Positions 38,477-49,154 of a stretch of DNA of 64,000 nt are shown here, in pieces; position 1 is the first letter of the stretch; each line of letters starts with the position of its first letter. The notes beneath the pieces are model-generated. The model made no database searches. It saw only the letters and a program-made list of their open reading frames with translations, and had not been told where the DNA came from. Made by a program: the position numbers and the translations under genes. Origin of the DNA: Deltaproteobacteria bacterium (GTDB lineage Bacteria; Myxococcota_A; Polyangia; Polyangiales; Houyiibacteriaceae); contig SHLP01000005.1 of assembly GCA_004283055.1 (NCBI GenBank), forward strand, positions 4,687 to 68,686, written 5' to 3'.

Positions 38477-38966
38477 ACCCATCCCTCCTCAAATGCGCGG
38501 TCAGGAGAAGCAAACGATGAATCTCGCTCAGTGCATCCGACCATCGAGCCTGGTCGAGCGCTGTGACCAGGTTTAGACGCGCCGCTGCGTAGTCCGTATT
38601 GACGCGCGCAGCGATGGCGGCGTGCAAACGGCCCGCACGAACCGCGTCATCATGCGAGCCGGCGCCTCGGTAGCACGCCTCGGCTTGCGCGAAGTGGTAT
38701 GCTGCTCGAACACCGTCGCCGGCATCGTACGGATAGCGGTCCGCAAACAGAAGACCGCGCTCCTCCAAACGTCGAGCGCTTGTCACTCCCTCGTCACGAA
38801 GCGGGCAGGGCTGCACATCGGCGAAGAGCTCCGGGTAGTCGTCGAGCGCTTGCTCGTCGACGTTGGTCGACTCCCGGCCTCGAAACCATCCGATGAGAGC
38901 CGCGAGTACGCACGCCGCAAGCAAGAGGAAGAGGCCTTGCACTCGGACTGACGGAGCACTCGTCAT
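38415..38966 (-). CDS. membrane-anchored protein of unknown function (Tad-like operon)
   Basis: ATG at 38966 (MTSAPSVRVQGLFLLLAACVLAALIGWF) forms an ATGA overlap with the tadC-like stop (38963-38966). One N-terminal TM segment and a helical C-terminal part. Confidence 0.5.
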   Translation of the reverse strand: MTSAPSVRVQGLFLLLAACVLAALIGWFRGRESTNVDEQALDDYPELFADVQPCPLRDEGVTSARRLEERGLLFADRYPYDAGDGVRAAYHFAQAEACYRGAGSHDDAVRAGRLHAAIAARVNTDYAAARLNLVTALDQARWSDALSEIHRLLLLTAHLRRDGYVEWLNKIVGRTTARASTTL

Positions 38967-39877
38967 GCCGGTCCGAGCCCTCCGGTCATGAAGCGAACGA
39001 CAACCGGGCCCAGAAGCAGAGCGATCACGCATAGAAAGATCAGCGTCATCGGACCCAGCAGCATGAGTGCAGCCTCCGACGCCGTCTCTTCGGCCGCAAC
39101 GCTTCGCCGCAAACGCTGTGTTTGTGATTGAATTCGGAGAACGCGAGCGAGGGGGCTGCCTCGTTCTTCTGCTTGAACGACGCTATTTACGAACTCCCGA
39201 ACCTGATCGGTCGGAATTCGGGATGCGAGCCCCTCCATTGCGCTTCGTCGAGTGTGACCGAGGTCGAGCTCCTGCAGGACTCTCGAGAATTCCTCGATGA
39301 TGGGGTCGCTGTCATCGGACGCGCTTTGGACGATGCGTCGGAGTGAACCGGGGAAGTCCAAGCCCGCGCTCATGCACATGGACGCGAGCTCGACCGCGGC
39401 GGGAAGCCGGCGGCCTACCATCTGTGCTCTTTGCTGAGCGACACCAACGATGCGAAACCAGGGAAGGACAGCTCCGAGGCCGAGAGCTCCGACTGAAACA
39501 AGCCAAGATACGCCCAGGAACCGGCACGCAATCAGCGTCCCGCCTCCGAGGCCGAGGCCAGAGAGAAGACAGAGCGCGATCAGCTCGTCGTCGGACAGCC
39601 CGAGGTAGTCGCCCGCATACGTCAGCAGGCGGCGTACGCGTGTACGTATCTGTTCCATCCGAATCGGTGCGAGCCATGCGGCAATCAGGCGGAGCGTTGG
39701 CTCAAGCCAGGCGAAGAAGCTGCCACGACTCAAAGCTCTGGCTCGATTTAGGCCCCGAGTACCCAGGACGGGTCGCTCCGCTGCACGGATCCTTGAGAGC
39801 TCAAATGTGAAACGGGATACGCCTCCCAGGATCAGCGCAAAAACCAGCGTGAGGAAGCTATCGAACGGACCGATCAC
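38963..39877 (-). CDS. TadC-like inner-membrane platform protein (T2SS-F domain)
   Basis: T2SSF-type domain (...LPAAVELASMCMSAGLDFPGSLRRI...) flanked by TM helices. GTG at 39877 forms a GTGA overlap with the tadB-like stop; the track start is 39925. Confidence 0.8.
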   Translation of the reverse strand: MIGPFDSFLTLVFALILGGVSRFTFELSRIRAAERPVLGTRGLNRARALSRGSFFAWLEPTLRLIAAWLAPIRMEQIRTRVRRLLTYAGDYLGLSDDELIALCLLSGLGLGGGTLIACRFLGVSWLVSVGALGLGAVLPWFRIVGVAQQRAQMVGRRLPAAVELASMCMSAGLDFPGSLRRIVQSASDDSDPIIEEFSRVLQELDLGHTRRSAMEGLASRIPTDQVREFVNSVVQAEERGSPLARVLRIQSQTQRLRRSVAAEETASEAALMLLGPMTLIFLCVIALLLGPVVVRFMTGGLGPA

Positions 39878-40730
39878 AAGTCGACCTTCGCGATGTGATG
39901 AGCCCAGACCGTAGCGAAGATCCACAGCAGGGCGCAGGTTGCGAGGAGTGCCTGACCAAGCTTCTGATTCAGCATTGGCTCGAACCAGGACCTATCGAGC
40001 CACGCGATCATGATGCAAAGAAGAAAGGGCACGGAGGCCAGGACCAGAACCTGCCCACGGCCCTCGGCTGTTCTGGACCGAAGCACGCCCTCGAGCCTCG
40101 CGGATTCCCGAAGGGCCTCCGACGCATGCTCCAAAGTCTTGGACAAGTCGCCACCGGTCTGACGTGCAACCACGATCGTCGCTAGGGCTCCAGAAATCGC
40201 GGTGCTGTCTATTCGTCGGGCGAGAGCGTTGATCGCGCGATCGAGCGGCGCACCTAATCGGATCTCTTTGACCAGTAGGTCGACCTCTGCACTAAACGGC
40301 TTGGGCATCAATGAAACGGTCGAAGCAATCGCTTCTCCAACGGAGGAGGTCGCTTTGAGCGCATTGGCCAACATGAGTAACCACGTATCGAGCTGACGTT
40401 CGAGTTGCTCGACGCGCGCGCGGTGACGCTTCCACAAAACGAACGGCGGCGCCGCCGCAGCCAAGAACATGAGAAGGGCAAACACCGAACTTCGAGTGAC
40501 CGCACTCATGCCTGCCAAAGCAGAGCAGGTGATGAGTTGTGCCAACGCGATTTGTGACCCTCGGTAGCGGAGCAAGAGAAAACTCGAGTGCCGTTCGAGT
40601 CGCTCGGCGTAGCGTCCCCATCGCCGCTGCGCGAAGTTTCCTTCGATGGAGAACGAGAGATACGTGATGGCCGCACAGCCGCAGACGAGAAAAACAGCCG
40701 ACGAAATGAGAAGCGGGAGGGCATCGAGCC

Positions 40731-40734
<4 letters not shown>
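39874..40734 (-). CDS. TadB-like inner-membrane platform protein (T2SS-F domain)
   Basis: T2SSF-type domain (...LDTWLLMLANALKATSSVGEAIASTV...) plus TM helices. GTG at 40734 forms a GTGA overlap with the ATPase stop. Confidence 0.8.
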
Positions 40735-42310
<1,576 letters not shown>

Positions 42311-42314
<4 letters not shown>

Positions 42315-43456
42315 CTCTCTCCTTCAACCGTGGAGGCGGTGGAACGCCCAACGCGAGGCTGATCCAGGAGGTGGTGGTCGTCGACATGACCCCGGAAGCT
42401 CTCGTATACACGAAGCGCCTCTTCGACTCGGTCTCTTTGACTCAAGCTGACTGGCTCGATGACCGAAGGAACCACGAACATGTACGACTGGTCGTCTTCG
42501 ATCTCGCGGGAATGCGTACCGAAGAGCGCGCCGATGAATGGAGCGAGAGCCAAGCCTGGGATTCCGCTTCTCCTTCGCCTCTCGGTGCGTGCGCGAATTC
42601 CAGCTAGGGAAACGGACTGACCCAGCTCGAGATTCACCAAGGTTTCGATGTGTGAAGTGATGCGGCCGGGAATCCCTCTCGCTCCTTTTTCCGAATCTAG
42701 GTCGGACACGTCAGCCACGATTTCAAGCTCGATGCGACCAGTCTTGGAATCGTACGTAGGGAGAACACTGACCTTCGTCCCGAACTCGATGGCCTGCACG
42801 TTCACGGTCAAATTGTTTTGGACTTGAACGTTGAACTCCCCGCCGGAGGTGAACACGGCTTCGGTGCCATTGGCAGTCACCAAGGTGGCTTGACGGTACA
42901 GCTTCGCCCACCCTTTAGCCTGTGCGAGGTCGAAGCTCGGCAGGAACGTCTGCGGCAGAATTTGAAACGCGCTCTGTGTGGCTTGTCCGCTGCCGCCCGT
43001 AATCGCGATGGCGGCCTCGGAAGGCCCGAGGGTGCTACCGATGTTCCCGGGCCAGTTGAGCCCAATTTGGTGCCCATAGCGGTCCTGGATCAGTACGAAA
43101 TACAAGTCCAATCGGATGTTCTCCCGTCCTCCAAATCCCTTTGTCGCATCTGCTGGAATGACTCGAATTGTGTACTGCAGCTGGTTGCCGTCGCTCTTGA
43201 TCAGCAGCAACGAAGTCGCGCCCTCCTGCTTGCCAACCAGCACGAAGCGACTCTGGTCGCGCGTGATTCGGATGTCGGCGAAGCCAGGTGCACCCTCGGA
43301 GTAGCTTTTGATGCCTCGCGCGGACAGGCTCTTCTGCTCACCGACTCGCAGGGTGATCGAACGCTCGGCGTCGAGATCGGCTCTAGCTTCAGCCTCGAGC
43401 GCCCCGGAAACGAGGACAAGCGTTGCGAGCGCGAACCTGTTCGCGAGGATAGTCAT
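42311..43456 (-). CDS. CpaC/RcpA-like outer-membrane secretin
   Basis: Signal peptide MTILANRFALATLVLVSGALEAEA. N-terminal BON/pilus-formation-like domain. Secretin C-domain ending ...RRSGIPGLALAPFIGALFGTHSREIEDDQSYMFVVPSVI. Confidence 0.85.
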
Positions 43457-43457
43457 C

Positions 43458-44219
43458 TTAGTCGACCCTCTCGATCCTCAATCGCCGTTGGCGACGAGCT
43501 CGCTTCTCTTGTTCGAGCACGTCGGAGTCGTCGGTCTCCGGGAGACCTTCATTGATCTCCAGATCGTTTTCGTTGCGGAGGAGGAGACTCAAGCTCGAAT
43601 CACGTCGGGCCTGGGCAAGCAGGCTAGCCTGGTCGATCGTGACCAGAAGCGTGACGGGGTCCGATCGAAGCGAGGAGTCGTGGAGGTCTGCCGCTGCGAA
43701 TCGGGCACCGACGGCGAGAACCAGAATATTCTGCAGAAGGGGGATCGTGACGACGCTTGCCTCCGAGCCTGGCTTTGCCTTGGTGAGCAGGACGTCGACC
43801 CGATCGCCGGGACGTATCAGCGGAGCCAGGTTTCGTCTTCCCGCGGCGTCGATGCTGATCGCCCGCATGCCTTTTGGGATGCGGCTCGACAGCGAGCTCC
43901 GATCGCTTGGAGTAGTCGACAGGTCGGTCCAGAGTAGAGTCTGGTTCGCCTCGAGCGCGATGGATGCGCGGACTCCCAGGACCCGTGGAAGTGCGCTGGC
44001 GAGGACTTGACGTTCCTCGACGTAACTCTCGGGCAAGGCTCTCACGAGCAACATCTCCTCGGTTAGAGGAACACCTGCCGCGACGTTCTGACTCGTAACG
44101 AGCAATGCGATGGGATCACCGCCGGTCGCATCTCGCTGAAACTCCCGCACGTAAGCAAAAAGAAGCACAAAGCCCAGGGCGGCGACGATGGCGGATGCGA
44201 GGAGGGCGGTTCGGTTCAT
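43458..44219 (-). CDS. CpaB/RcpC-like pilus assembly protein
   Basis: N-terminal TM segment, SAF-like domain (...VTSQNVAAGVPLTEEML...) and RcpC-like C-domain (...IRPGDRVDVLLT...LLQNILVLAVG...). Confidence 0.85.
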   Translation of the reverse strand: MNRTALLASAIVAALGFVLLFAYVREFQRDATGGDPIALLVTSQNVAAGVPLTEEMLLVRALPESYVEERQVLASALPRVLGVRASIALEANQTLLWTDLSTTPSDRSSLSSRIPKGMRAISIDAAGRRNLAPLIRPGDRVDVLLTKAKPGSEASVVTIPLLQNILVLAVGARFAAADLHDSSLRSDPVTLLVTIDQASLLAQARRDSSLSLLLRNENDLEINEGLPETDDSDVLEQEKRARRQRRLRIERVD

Positions 44220-45100: not shown

Positions 45101-45634
45101 CTATCGGCACACTTCACGCGCGTACTCCGTGTTTTGCAGACCCGTGTGGCAGGCGTGCTCCAGGACGTTGCCCGCTCCTCGGGCGGTCCGAGCCGTGGTG
45201 TTGCAGAGCAGGGTCGTCACTCCATGCTGCGAGCCGATCGCGGGGCTCAGCATCGTCGGCATCGAGGATTTAGCTGAGCCCACCCCGTTCGTCGCCTGGC
45301 CCAGAAAGAAGCGGCCGAGGTTTCCGAGAAAGGAATCCAAGGACAGGCGGCCGTCGCGCACTGTGAGCAGGTCATCGAGACCACCGGCGCGAAGCTCGCC
45401 TTCGATGCGACCGCACTCCCCGCTTCGACAGCTTTGCGTGGGACATTCGCCCGAGTCGGCCTGCAGCCACGCCATTCGCCTGGCGCGAGACTTCGCTTCT
45501 AGCTTTGCTCCGTACATCCCATTGAGGCCGATCACCCCTGCCAAACAGGCTACAAACACCGGGAGACTAATCAGGGCTTCCAGCATCGCGGTTCCGCTTT
45601 CGTCGCTCAGCAATTGTCGAATGGATGCACCCAT
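45101..45634 (-). CDS. TadE-like pseudopilin
   Basis: ATG at 45634 gives MGASIRQLLSDESGTAMLEALISLPVFVACLAGV, a TadE N-terminal motif followed by a hydrophobic helix. The track start at 45868 would overlap the upstream gene by more than 200 nt. Confidence 0.65.
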   Translation of the reverse strand: MGASIRQLLSDESGTAMLEALISLPVFVACLAGVIGLNGMYGAKLEAKSRARRMAWLQADSGECPTQSCRSGECGRIEGELRAGGLDDLLTVRDGRLSLDSFLGNLGRFFLGQATNGVGSAKSSMPTMLSPAIGSQHGVTTLLCNTTARTARGAGNVLEHACHTGLQNTEYAREVCR

Positions 45635-45641
45635 GATGTCC

Positions 45642-46850
45642 TCAGTGGGCAGAGACCGCGTTGATGGAAAAATCACGGGCAACGTCACAAATACCCGAGA
45701 GCCCTTCGAGCGACCCCCGCCCTCTCGCGGCCGAACAAGCGCTGAGAATTCCGCTGGGGATCCAACTCCGCGAAATTCGAAACCTCCGAAGCCGTGCGCG
45801 CCACCTCTGTTTCCAGAGCCATTCGGCTTTGTGCTCAGTGCCGTCGAAATAGTACTCGGCCTGAGCAAACGCGAGGCGTCCTACGACGTGCGCCTCGTGG
45901 ATGGAGCTCCGTCCGTCTGTCCCACCGCCCTGTGCGATTCGAACGCCCCGCTCGCCGTTTCGCCAATGACTCCGATGGGGGTCGTGGCCGATGGCGTACG
46001 CCCGGTATTGGAATTCCTCGTGCCCAAGCCATACGGGAGTTTCATCACCTCGGGTTTCAATCACGCGGCGAGGTGACTCGACTACGTCGTCTGCACACGT
46101 TCGTCGTTTTCCAAGTCGAAGTGCCTGGCCGACTACGCCCCCGAGAAACCTGAGAAGCCAACGGGGAACCCTCGATCTCACATTCCTCAGCCTGTTGCTC
46201 AGCCCATCGGCGACTCGATCGCAGACGACGCCGAGCTCGTCCTCCTCGACGGGAAGCCCCCGACCGCCGCCCGGAAGACGCGAACCGAGAAGCGGGACGA
46301 CAAAGCCCCCCGAAACCGGGGGGTCGTAGGCAGCCTGAAAAGCCATCGCATCGACCGCCCGCGCTTCGGCAAGCAGCGGGTACGTATGCTGAACCACCTT
46401 GTGAGCGGCATTCAACGCGTGATGAGCCGTCCGAACGAACTGCTCGACCGCGTCGCCGACCCTTTCTACCGTACTCTCGACGGGGCTGAGCGCGGCGATG
46501 AGCGCGGACGCCTTCGCCGCCAGGAGGACTGTCGCGACCAAGCCGTACAGAATCCCGAGAGTGATCTCGAGCAGCACCTCGACGCTGCGAATGACGAGCA
46601 GGATGCCGGCGGTTACGGCCATCACCACATTGAGTAAGACATGAAGGTTCATCCCCTTCGCGCCCATCACTGATGCCGCGTACGCACCGGCATCGGCGCC
46701 GTCTTGCATGATGCGCCGGTACACGACGGCGTCGCCTACGCCGAGGATGTAGTAGAGAGCCCCTATGAGAAGGAGCGCCATGAAGAGGGACATCAGCATC
46801 ATGGCGCCTCGCGTATCGTCCAGAAGGCGGGCTCGATTCAAATGCCTCAT
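45642..46850 (-). CDS. TadG-like pilus assembly protein
   Basis: N-terminus ...DDTRGAMMLMSLFMALLLIGALYYILGVGDAV matches the TadE/G-like N-terminal motif. About 400 aa. ATGA overlap with the upstream gene at 46847-46850. Confidence 0.65.
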   Translation of the reverse strand: MRHLNRARLLDDTRGAMMLMSLFMALLLIGALYYILGVGDAVVYRRIMQDGADAGAYAASVMGAKGMNLHVLLNVVMAVTAGILLVIRSVEVLLEITLGILYGLVATVLLAAKASALIAALSPVESTVERVGDAVEQFVRTAHHALNAAHKVVQHTYPLLAEARAVDAMAFQAAYDPPVSGGFVVPLLGSRLPGGGRGLPVEEDELGVVCDRVADGLSNRLRNVRSRVPRWLLRFLGGVVGQALRLGKRRTCADDVVESPRRVIETRGDETPVWLGHEEFQYRAYAIGHDPHRSHWRNGERGVRIAQGGGTDGRSSIHEAHVVGRLAFAQAEYYFDGTEHKAEWLWKQRWRARLRRFRISRSWIPSGILSACSAARGRGSLEGLSGICDVARDFSINAVSAH

Positions 46851-47638
46851 GAACGCCTCGGACGATACTCGTAGGGTGCGTCATGGATGAGCAGCGTGGT
46901 TTCGTGCTGTAGACCCCGAAATCGACCCCCGACGATAGACTGCGCCAGCGGGAAGAACGCTCCGCCGATCTCTTCTCGAGCCGCGAGGTCCGCGAACGAG
47001 CGACAAAGAATTTTTCGCGCAAGGGGCACCGTGCACTGAAAGGCATAGGTCACCCTCACGGTGATCTCTGGCTGGTCGGCTACGCTTCCCTGAAGCCCCG
47101 GAAACGTCACCGCTAGGGCAAACGGCTGATAGTACAGCGCAGATAAGAGCCTACGCTGAGTTCCGATTGCCTTGGCAATACTGGGCTGCGAATCGCGACC
47201 GACATTTTCAGGTGCTAGAGGCATCAGCGGCACGTGTGCGGCCAGCCGAATCGTGTTGAGGCGCGACCTTCCAAGGTTCACCAAGGCCGCCGAGGAAAAG
47301 GCGCGGGATAGACCTGCTCCGCTCGCGCCGACCTGTGCGGCAGAACCGATTTGCTCGAGCGCGAGACCGAGATCGGCCGCCGTCACGGCGTTGCGGGCCA
47401 CGCTCATTTTCGCTTCGCCGCCGTACTCGTTGGGGTCGTCAGGCAGGACGACTGCGGCCGATCGCGCGGCTGAGTCAGCCGAGTGCTTCACGATGAGGTC
47501 CGCATGGGCAATGAAGGCGAGCTGGAGGATGCATAGGAAGAACGACCACATCGGAACGAATGCGATGAGGAGCTCGAGGAAGACGACGCCGCGCTTGTCA
47601 GCAAATAGGGAGCCAGAACTTGACGAGACCACCGTCAC
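46847..47638 (-). CDS. TadE/TadF-like pseudopilin
   Basis: ...DKRGVVFLELLIAFVPMWSFFLCIL is a TadE-like N-terminal motif. GTG at 47638 forms a GTGA overlap with the peptidase stop; the alternative GTG at 47650 is the track start. Confidence 0.65.
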   Translation of the reverse strand: MTVVSSSSGSLFADKRGVVFLELLIAFVPMWSFFLCILQLAFIAHADLIVKHSADSAARSAAVVLPDDPNEYGGEAKMSVARNAVTAADLGLALEQIGSAAQVGASGAGLSRAFSSAALVNLGRSRLNTIRLAAHVPLMPLAPENVGRDSQPSIAKAIGTQRRLLSALYYQPFALAVTFPGLQGSVADQPEITVRVTYAFQCTVPLARKILCRSFADLAAREEIGGAFFPLAQSIVGGRFRGLQHETTLLIHDAPYEYRPRRS

Positions 47639-48180
47639 AGACCCGCCCACCCAAACAGGAGATGCGGCGCGGTGAGGATCCCGGTCGCGGCGAAGACCGG
47701 AGCGCCCATGCGAATGGGCGCAACTAGCTCATCGCACGGGTCGCGACGCCAACGTTGCGGAAGCACGGGGCCCAACGCGACCGCCCAGGCGTTCCCTAGA
47801 GTTCTGGTTAACGCCCCTTTCCATGCCAGCGAGGCACTGGTGACGATCAAGGCTGCCACGAGTGCCGCGAGCTGGATTTCGACGCCGAGCAGCAGGTCGA
47901 AGCCCATCACCGCACCAAGTGCGCCAAAGAGCTTGACGTCGCCGCCCCCCATCGCGCCGCGGCGAAAGAGCAGGTACGGGACCAAGCCGGCCAAGAATGC
48001 AGCCGCGAGGCTGTGAAGTGCGTATTCGACGCCGAACGCGAGTCCGTAGCTCGCCGGCGCCAGCAGTAGGGCCGGAAGCGTCAGCCAATTCGGGATTTCA
48101 CCTCGTCGCCAATCCCAAAACGCGGCTGTTGCGGCGACAAACAAAGCGAGGCTCGCAGCGATGGTTACGCCGGTCTCCAT
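47635..48180 (-). CDS. A24-family prepilin peptidase (CpaA/TadV-like)
   Basis: ATG at 48180 (METGVTIAASLALFVAATAAFWDWRRGEIPN...). Both catalytic Asp contexts are present (DWRRGEIPN and GGGDVKL). The upstream 194 codons of the track ORF 47635..48762 read through flp in another frame and are rejected. Confidence 0.85.
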   Translation of the reverse strand: METGVTIAASLALFVAATAAFWDWRRGEIPNWLTLPALLLAPASYGLAFGVEYALHSLAAAFLAGLVPYLLFRRGAMGGGDVKLFGALGAVMGFDLLLGVEIQLAALVAALIVTSASLAWKGALTRTLGNAWAVALGPVLPQRWRRDPCDELVAPIRMGAPVFAATGILTAPHLLFGWAGL

Positions 48181-48191
48181 CCCACATTCCT

Positions 48192-48377
48192 CTACTGCAC
48201 GACGTCCGCGATGTATCCGTCGGCTGCTTCGACCTCGCCGATTAAGGTCTCGCCAAATTGCTGCCAAGCCGCGATGCCGACAACGGCGATCAAACCGAGC
48301 ACGATGATGTACTCGACTGTGGTCAGTCCCCGCTTGTCCGATAGCAACGTTTTCTCGATTTCTGCTTTGTCTTTCAT
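48192..48377 (-). CDS. flp: Flp/Fap-family type IVb prepilin
   Basis: MKDKAEIEKTLLSDKRG|LTTVEYIIVLGLIAVVGIAAW carries the G-X4-EY Flp processing motif followed by a hydrophobic helix. GAGAGGAAGG Shine-Dalgarno upstream. Confidence 0.85.
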   Translation of the reverse strand: MKDKAEIEKTLLSDKRGLTTVEYIIVLGLIAVVGIAAWQQFGETLIGEVEAADGYIADVVQ

Positions 48378-48392
48378 GACTGCCTTCCTCTC

Positions 48393-48527
48393 TCAGGGCA
48401 CCGGCAAAAGGATGAAGAGTTTCGTGATATAAAAAGCCTGGACGAGGGGTACGCCGAGGCCGTAGAGCGCGAGGCCGACCGCCAGAACGACGACCCCTGT
48501 GAGCAACGCGTATTCGGCGAACACCAT
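48393..48527 (-). CDS. candidate 44-aa leaderless Flp-like hydrophobic peptide (not in ORF track)
   Basis: Hand translation: MVFAEYALLTGVVVLAVGLALYGLGVPLVQAFYITKLFILLPVP. ATG is cat at 48525-48527, with an in-frame TGA 9 nt upstream; the stop is tca at 48393-48395, 15 nt before the flp ATG. About 35 of 44 codons end in G/C. There is no clear Shine-Dalgarno. Confidence 0.35.
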   Translation of the reverse strand: MVFAEYALLTGVVVLAVGLALYGLGVPLVQAFYITKLFILLPVP

Positions 48528-48604
48528 GACCGCTCATCGGACGGGGGCGGTGGATGTTGTGTCGAAACTCCTTCGCCCGTTCAGAACGCGGCCGGCCAAC
48601 GAAA

Positions 48605-48620
48605 TGGCACGCGACCCGCT
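48605..48620 (+). promoter_or_regulatory. candidate sigma-54 promoter (TGGCACG-N6-CGCT)
   Basis: TGGCACGCGACCCGCT has an exact -24 element (TGGCACG) and the conserved GC at the canonical GG-N10-GC spacing. The -12 element is CCGC rather than TTGC. It lies about 105 nt upstream of the SRPBCC ATG at 48726. Confidence 0.25.
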
Positions 48621-48725
48621 CCGGTTTTGCCGGACTTGGTTCAAGACTCGAATAAAGAATTGCGTATGGACGGTTGTGGCGGCCGCGCCTATACAAAGCT
48701 TCTTTCCAGCGAGCGACCCGTACCC

Positions 48726-49154
48726 ATGGCCTCCTTGAGCAAGAACGCAGTGATTCATGCACCGCCGGACCCCGTGTTCGCGTACGTCAGCGATCCTTCC
48801 AAGTTCCCCGAGTGGCTTCCGAGCATGGTCGAGGTTCGAAATGTCCTCGGTGCGGGCGCCGGGCAACAGTACGAGTGGACCTACAAAATGGCCGGAATGC
48901 TTCTTCGGGGGCAGAGCACCGTAGTCGAATACACCCCGAATCAACGCGTCGTGCTTCAGAGCATCGGCTCGATTGGCAGCGATTGGACCTTCACCGTCGA
49001 GCCGCACGAAGCAGGGGCGCTTCTGCGTATCGAGGTCGAATACAGCGTCCCCGTCCCGGTCTTAGGCAGGCTGGCCGAAAGGCTCGCGCTGAGCCGAGAC
49101 GCTCGTGAGTTCGCGGTCGGGTTTGACAATCTCAAAGAGGCTCTAGAGGGCTAG
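48726..49154 (+). CDS. SRPBCC-superfamily protein (copy 1 of tandem pair)
   Basis: MASLSKNAVIHAPPDPVFAYVSDPSKFPEWLPSMVEVRNV...QQYEWTYKMAGMLL... has a polyketide-cyclase/START-like fold pattern. ATG at 48726. Confidence 0.7.
   Translation: MASLSKNAVIHAPPDPVFAYVSDPSKFPEWLPSMVEVRNVLGAGAGQQYEWTYKMAGMLLRGQSTVVEYTPNQRVVLQSIGSIGSDWTFTVEPHEAGALLRIEVEYSVPVPVLGRLAERLALSRDAREFAVGFDNLKEALEG

Follow-up and report, generated by a model that had tools for sequence, protein, structure and literature searches.

The window studied here, by which we mean the whole stretch of 64,000 nucleotides that was analysed, belongs to contig SHLP01000005.1 (positions 4,687 to 68,686 of the forward strand; assembly GCA_004283055.1) of a Deltaproteobacteria bacterium of the order Polyangiales. 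It carries a Tad/Kil pilus locus, and directly in front of the pilin gene flp lies an open reading frame (ORF) of 44 codons on the minus strand (48527..48393), whose product is MVFAEYALLTGVVVLAVGLALYGLGVPLVQAFYITKLFILLPVP. The best explanation of the data as a whole, to which we would give a probability of about 0.6, is that this micro-ORF codes for a leader-less Flp-type pilin, translated from a leaderless mRNA and used as a minor or adapter subunit of the pilus independently of the prepilin peptidase.

The ORF opens with the codons ATG GTG TTC GCC GAA TAC and closes with a TGA at 48395-48393; 35 of its 44 codons have G or C at the third position. Read as a leaderless Flp-type (LPxP-tail) pilin, the product has M1-V-F-A-E5-Y6 at its N terminus, followed by a hydrophobic helix, G25-V-P-L28, K36 and a C-terminal LLPVP. 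The ATG of flp (48377) is reached exactly 15 nt past the stop codon, and an in-frame TGA (48536-48534) is found 9 nt 5′ of the A of the micro-ORF's ATG. All of this had been described in the original prediction, together with the cleavage site RG↓LTTVEY of the neighbouring Flp (↓, leader cleavage), and every one of these sequence features was confirmed.

Conservation of the micro-ORF and its kinship with Flp pilins

The micro-ORF is a genuine gene under purifying selection. A protein search retrieved 107 database homologues with 73-100% identity, nearly all of them exactly 44 aa long; they come from metagenome-assembled genomes (MAGs) of Polyangiales or "Myxococcales", are labelled hypothetical and are without a Pfam domain. 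A 135-nt ORF is present at the equivalent place in 20 of 20 loci of the same genus that were retrieved by DNA similarity. The codon alignment of these 20 loci gave a dN of 0.148, a dS of 1.02 and a dN/dS of 0.145 (pairwise Nei-Gojobori), and the diversity at codon positions 1, 2 and 3 was 0.18, 0.09 and 0.44. A profile match was obtained in 46 of the 55 genomes of the genus, a count taken irrespective of the presence of a Tad locus in the unmatched genomes. Across 28 diverse members, F3, E5, L15, L24, G25, V26, P27, K36, L37, F38, L40, L41, P42 and P44 are invariant. Hence the ORF is conserved, uninterrupted and under purifying selection, the points on which the original prediction had made its reality depend.

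The nine genus genomes that gave no profile match (G041, G064, G192 and six others) include some rated 100% complete. A scan of named records yielded 43 loci, all from uncultured MAGs such as Myxococcales bacterium SG8_38. In the 717-aa database protein P0120, the part of the profile from position 17 to 36 is matched 12 separate times, which may point to a repeat protein or to an array that was wrongly assembled or translated.

Judged by profile comparison, the window protein is homologous to Flp pilins and follows the same blueprint. Alignment of the subfamily with the neighbouring Flp family by hhalign gave a probability of 97.5% (E 5e-12) over 43 columns, which comprise the end of the leader and the mature helix, and M1 faces the first mature Flp residue; with a profile restricted to the genus, the values were 81% and 1e-5. 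The only sequence matches among all chains of the PDB were 8U1K (PilA, E 0.035) and 8U2B (Flp family type IVb pilin, E 0.096), both with chains of 45 residues and the same E5/Y6 register. AlphaFold2 predicts one continuous helix from residue 2 to 40 with a mean pLDDT of 88. Within the genus, every ORF has E5, and Y6 is almost as constant (H in one locus); the register is counted from Met1, and the Gly at -1 lies outside the product.

The genus profile also matches 134 of the 301 genomes of the order, distributed over 45 of its 117 genera. At 20 of these order-wide loci, the matching frame extends upstream into a canonical Flp leader, for example ...LVADTRG↓AVMAEY, ...LLRDTRG↓AVMSEY or ...LRRDERG↓VVFTEY; the leader-bearing proteins end in the same hydrophobic tail (...LLLLPFP or ...LLTAPIP, each followed by the stop) and adjoin an ordinary flp gene. 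An exhaustive profile search of 1.84 billion representatives found proteins of 58-100 aa with the pattern ...DxRG↓xVxxEY...GVPL...LLLPxP. As read from these sequences, members of the subfamily share one build: a leader with the cleavage context ...DxRG↓xVxxEY is followed by a hydrophobic helix, then by GVPL and a brief amphipathic segment, and the protein ends in the hydrophobic tail LLLPxP-COOH. Among the relatives with a leader, MNWPIKRTKKTEPSRALVRDQQG↓NVFAEYIIVLG...KLFVLLPIP is the closest; its cleavage context is LVRDQQG↓NVFAEY, and its gene has a sigma-70-like promoter, a Shine-Dalgarno sequence and, 14 nt further downstream, flp.

When the sequences are aligned jointly, Met1 of the window protein coincides with the residue directly after the cleavage-site Gly of the relatives, and the start codon (48525..48527, minus strand) is homologous to their mature position +1. 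The original prediction of an Flp-like peptide that has no leader and begins at the mature N terminus is borne out by this correspondence and by the profile alignment. From sequence comparison, the window gene is a descendant of an Flp-type prepilin gene whose leader was lost in the genus, leaving a product already of mature length and register. The genera g21, g23, g27, g18 and g20 of the same family retain the leader, and the simplest history is a single loss on the stem of the genus. Remnants of the leader end (R-G, Q-G or G-G) stand right before the start in some members of the genus, often behind a stop codon.

Leader-bearing LPxP-tail Flp paralogues beside an ordinary flp were also seen in other classes of the phylum (L112-L116 and L117-L121), with examples such as ...MRG↓QAMTEY...ATWISLPIP and RERG↓VVTLEY...WWLSIPVF, both ending at the stop. 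Since the paired arrangement of LPxP-tail gene and flp occurs well outside the Polyangiales, it is old and widespread. The LPxP-tail Flp subfamily is unannotated but ordinary in kind and widespread in Tad/Kil loci of Myxococcota.

Start of translation and the upstream DNA element

Translation begins, as far as codon usage can tell, at the first (A/G)TG, which is mature position +1. Among 40 distinct sequences, the total available for the genus, the first codon is GTG in 28 and ATG in 12, and no other Val codon occurs there; the adjacent Val codon is GTG in 26 and one of the other Val codons in 7 (Fisher p = 0.0125 versus the first codon). This restriction to ATG and GTG, beside a Val codon that does use synonyms, is the pattern of a start codon. 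The second codon in the 20 aligned loci is GTG, GTC, GTA, GCG or AGT and would often be unusable as a start. Furthermore, an in-frame stop (TGA or TAA) is located within 10 codons upstream in 25 of the 40 sequences. The in-frame TGA had been taken as ruling out a longer leader; it is indeed present in the window, but an upstream stop is not universal in the genus. Database versions of 53-74 aa have N-terminal extensions that are unconserved.

Two candidates for a different start were rejected. The register with Glu at position 4, suggested by 43-aa database versions, is an artefact of gene callers: the DNA reads GTG GTG TTC and the second GTG was chosen. An upstream extension by way of a 157-aa ORF (48534..49007, minus strand) was discarded as well, as this frame runs antisense to an SRPBCC gene (48726-49154, plus strand) and stops at the TGA; it is almost certainly an artefact of high GC content.

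The only conserved DNA upstream of the gene has the consensus caCGCAAC-N15-CCGAtgA-N6, directly followed by the start codon. GCAAC/ACAAC is invariant in the 40 genus sequences and the DNA farther upstream is unconserved; position -1 is usually C and position +1 always a purine. In the window, a putative -10-like element, the CCGATGA box (48534..48540, minus strand), lies 6 nt 5′ of the start codon, and a putative -35-like element, CACAAC (genus consensus CGCAAC; 48556..48561, minus strand), lies 15 nt 5′ of this box. Because the conservation includes would-be third codon positions, it points to a DNA element rather than to coding sequence, and the in-frame TGA is there because it is part of the conserved CCGAT(G/A)A box.

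The strict motif GCAAC-N15-17-CCGATRA has 11 sites in the genome of the window, compared to 1-6 for four control patterns, and the window's own site, which reads ACAAC, comes in addition to these. At 4 of the 11 strict sites, an ATG or GTG that opens an ORF of at least 40 codons follows exactly 6-7 nt downstream, compared to a background of about 3% after CCGATRA alone. A sigma-70 promoter scan of the intergenic region returned no sites. The GCAAC/CGAT pattern is reminiscent of promoters of the extracytoplasmic function (ECF) type. The data suggest that CGCAAC-N15-CCGATRA is a class of promoters that give rise to leaderless transcripts. The gene would then be the first cistron of the operon, transcribed from this promoter, and the predicted transcript start would be the first base of the start codon, which yields a leaderless mRNA. 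The original prediction had counted the missing Shine-Dalgarno sequence against the ORF. It is indeed missing, but as an objection this is probably answered, because the mRNA would be leaderless.

GCAAC-N16-CCGAT(A/G)A was also seen 6-7 nt before the ATG of other genes, including ORFs of 646 and 207 aa. The motif sites in genome G000 are at C80:1726(+), C119:7939(+), C149:38931(+), C189:19132(+) and C192:542(-).

The Tad locus and the proposed role of the peptide

All genes of the locus described here are on the minus strand. Between the stop of the micro-ORF and flp lies the 15-nt spacer (48378..48392) with the Shine-Dalgarno sequence of flp, AGGAAGG (48389-48383); it is kept as gagaggaaggcagtc in close relatives. 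The flp gene (48192..48377) encodes a 61-aa Flp prepilin with the leader MKDKAEIEKTLLSDKRG, the cleavage context ...SDKRG↓LTTVEY... and a mature part, LTTVEY..., of 44 aa with an acidic C terminus; its Flp_Fap match in Pfam has 24.6 bits and is thus below the cut-off of 32.2. The mature Flp (LTTVEYIIVLGLIAVVGIAAWQQFGETLIGEVEAADGYIADVVQ) is near-identical genus-wide (window and L002-L032) and the Flp leader is free to vary. Mature Flp and the micro-ORF product have the same length, 44 aa.

Next comes the gene of a 181-aa A24 prepilin peptidase of the CpaA/TadV/KilA type (47635..48180; PF01478, E 3e-17), and the order micro-ORF, flp, peptidase is repeated in relatives. Three pseudopilin-like genes follow (45101..47650), coding for a TadE-like, a 402-aa TadG-like and a second TadE-like protein; they have the N-terminal motif ..DKRG↓VVFLEL and weak TadE matches (E 0.05 and 0.04). 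The core of the Tad machine, as identified by Pfam matches, is encoded at 38963..44219 and comprises RcpC/CpaB, a secretin, an FHA-CpaF ATPase, TadB and TadC. With the A24 peptidase, the CpaF-type ATPase, TadB/C, the secretin and RcpC, the components expected of a tad locus are all found by Pfam.

A model for the function comes from the Kil pilus of Myxococcus xanthus. In this Tad-like pilus, KilP is the major Flp pilin and the tip complexes are formed by KilL, KilM and KilN (PMC12075869). KilK (MXAN_4655) and KilO (MXAN_1150) are small Flp adapters that couple the tips to the fibre and are required for priming of polymerisation; both have a leader peptide with a conserved cleavage motif, and their helices are modelled as buried between tip and fibre (PMC12075869). 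By analogy, the pseudopilin-like trio of the window would be comparable to the KilL/N/M tip trio (PMC12075869). The supplement of the same paper lists primers from which KilK reads MNHPKTLR...VLNLPFP-stop and KilO reads MRKSLRP...VIQAPI-stop (PMC12075869). These tails match the LLLPxP and APIP tails of the subfamily, a comparison of termini only, and the subfamily probably includes KilK. Protein searches with synthetic queries made from the primer-derived KilK termini retrieved only Flp-like proteins from MAGs.

The window locus has the matching parts, that is, the micro-ORF, flp, the peptidase and the TadE/TadG/TadE-like trio. From these parts and the Kil-like tails we infer that the 44-aa protein is an adapter or a priming minor pilin of this machine. 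The 44-aa helix would insert into the inner membrane and, like KilK and KilO, become a minor or adapter subunit of the Tad/Kil pilus that is present in few copies. Placed between the TadE/TadG-like tip complex and the Flp fibre, it would connect the two and contribute to the priming of polymerisation. In contrast to Flp and the TadE-like proteins, this subunit would be assembled without the A24 prepilin peptidase that is encoded two genes downstream. The original prediction had left a choice between a pilin-like subunit, a decoy, a primer and an inhibitor of assembly; of these, the analogy leads us to favour a primer or an adapter subunit.

Several observations speak against a leader-less Flp-type subunit in this role. 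The search against Flp_Fap that had been proposed as a check gave no match at Pfam thresholds: a Pfam scan of the window ORF found no Flp_Fap (PF04964) match at E<=10, PF04964 matched 3 of 32 subfamily members with a best E of 0.09, below the gathering cut-off, and no Pfam or NCBIfam model reached its cut-off for the ORF or the 32 family members. Flp_Fap, TadE, DUF4244 and Class_IIIsignal gave no more than sub-threshold matches, and these were confined to some of the leader-bearing members. Of the features by which Flp pilins are recognised, the window protein thus has neither a basic class III leader nor a Pfam score above the cut-off. The link to KilK is drawn from termini read off primers, and a back-translated pattern of the KilK C terminus matched neither two further classes nor the phylum's most complete genomes; the genomes searched apparently included none of the Myxococcus type.

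The start region raises further doubts. A divergent lineage of the genus (genome G008, with the database protein P0119) has GTT GTG at positions +1/+2 and hence a register shifted by one residue. One extra base follows its CCGATAA box, and its product would be M-F-S-E-Y, shorter by one residue, provided that translation does not begin at a TTG or ATG farther upstream; an upstream start in this lineage would instead give a leader without Gly at -1. This state could be an intermediate or an alternative stage of leader loss. If Met1 were removed by methionine aminopeptidase (residue 2 is Val, Ala or Ser), Glu would be at position 4 and not 5. Topology is a problem as well: without a basic leader, charge is confined to E5 near the N terminus and K36 near the C terminus, and by the positive-inside rule this would favour an orientation opposite to that of a pilin (N-in). 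Finally, the almost wholly hydrophobic mature sequence would suit a membrane-resident protein equally well.

It is conceivable that the peptide, although descended from a pilin and leaderless, is no longer a pilus subunit but remains in the inner membrane and regulates the machine as a pilin mimic; it could, for example, be a product-like decoy on the platform (TadB/C) or on the prepilin peptidase, or an assembly gate. We regard this as unlikely, but it deserves serious consideration. The mature sequence is almost entirely hydrophobic and has no polar surface, the charge distribution without a basic leader does not enforce pilin topology, and as a first, separately initiated cistron the gene could have its dosage set independently of flp. 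However, leader-bearing orthologues pair the same hydrophobic tail with a normal cleavage site, which suggests that the cell treats the entire subfamily as pilins. E5/Y6, residues tied to subunit docking, have remained essentially invariant after loss of the leader, and KilK, with which an LPFP tail is shared, acts genetically as an adapter subunit.

A second alternative keeps the subunit but hides its leader: translation would start at a non-canonical codon upstream or read through TGA/TAA, with the usual A24 cleavage to follow. The upstream frame is open in 15 of the 40 genus sequences, and in some a G or RG still precedes the start; a few upstream codons align when the profile includes the leader, the gene callers gave the 53-74 aa versions, and an arginine-rich upstream peptide is common to P0119 and G008 (ALWRxRQLxRxPSDKPV; G008 locus L099, G008:C1:776600-777700, minus strand near nt 467). 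We nevertheless consider such a leader very improbable. The stops in the other 25 sequences are both TGA and TAA, so no single recoding event would suffice; the extensions are unconserved as protein, the conserved bases upstream are invariant at all codon positions like those of a DNA element, the +1 codon is limited to ATG/GTG, and in the window the residues before M1 in the upstream frame are A-V and not G. Least of all do we expect a chance ORF or a functionless, decaying relic of a duplicated flp. The ORF is very short, has no Shine-Dalgarno sequence and finds no match in curated family libraries, as such a relic might. Yet all same-genus loci examined preserve its length and frame at a dS of about 1 and a dN/dS of 0.145, and 14 positions are invariant in the 28 diverse members. 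The conservation data effectively refute a chance or relic origin.

What sets the leader-less Flp-type subunit apart is the state of its N terminus. To our knowledge, all type IV pilins, pseudopilins, archaellins and Flp subunits described so far are synthesised as precursors, from which a peptidase of the A24 family has to remove the leader before assembly. Leader and cleavage are accordingly treated as defining features of the superfamily (e.g. PMC12075869). A full-text literature search for leaderless pilins found no report, which is absence of evidence only, and a leaderless state fixed across a genus is, to the best of our knowledge, undescribed for any type IV pilin-like protein. It is tempting to speculate that this is the first natural member of the superfamily without a class III signal peptide, made in its mature form from a leaderless mRNA, inserted correctly and used as a priming or adapter subunit of a Tad/Kil pilus independently of the peptidase; for this full claim we would stop somewhat short of even odds.

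Throughout a genus, strong purifying selection maintains a pilin homologue that starts at the processed N terminus, whereas sister genera keep the leader. If it is a leaderless subunit, leader and cleavage would be dispensable for insertion and assembly in the smallest pilins, and evolution would be able to hard-wire a subunit that is already processed. If it still acts as a subunit, the purpose of the leader (topology, timing, prevention of premature assembly) could be tested in a natural system, and so could the questions whether a free Met1 or formyl-Met N terminus replaces the processed one and how adapter pilins are dosed. Gaps in annotation also come to light: the LPxP-tail Flp subfamily and, in an uncultured lineage of Polyangiales, a class of promoters that apparently gives leaderless transcripts.

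Comparison with known systems

Leaderless mRNAs, in which transcription starts at the start codon, are known in Actinobacteria. Within the myxobacteria, a leaderless mRNA was proposed for the gene pexR (PMC12754779). The window gene has in common with them a promoter-like element ending 6 nt before the start, the missing Shine-Dalgarno sequence, a pyrimidine at -1 and a purine at +1. It differs in that its putative -35 and -10 elements (GCAAC and CCGATRA) depart from the sigma-70 consensus, and its transcription start site is a prediction.

With the Flp/Fap pilins of Tad systems (PF04964; Caulobacter PilA 8U1K, and 8U2B) the window protein shares a mature length of 44-45 aa, the E5-Y6 register, a single long helix, the LG..L motif near residue 25 and a tad locus with an A24 peptidase. 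Unlike them, it lacks both the class III signal peptide and the Gly at -1, and its C terminus is a hydrophobic LPxP, whereas that of Flp/Fap pilins is polar or acidic. The leader-bearing LPxP-tail Flp paralogues of other Polyangiales and other Myxococcota (P0118, P0125, L034 and L114, for example) are orthologous in sequence to the window protein (E down to 1e-9 against the genus profile); they end in the same tail, and their genes likewise adjoin flp. In contrast to the window gene, they encode a basic leader of about 15-55 aa that ends in ..RG or ..SG, and the one whose upstream DNA was read (L098) has an ordinary promoter and a Shine-Dalgarno sequence.

KilK and KilO of M. xanthus are the proposed functional counterparts. 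Like the window protein, they are small, fully helical and Flp-like and are encoded in a myxobacterial Tad/Kil cluster beside the genes of tip pseudopilins. The buried adapter position in the KilK/KilO model fits the all-hydrophobic window peptide. Both have a leader and a cleavage motif and the window protein has neither.

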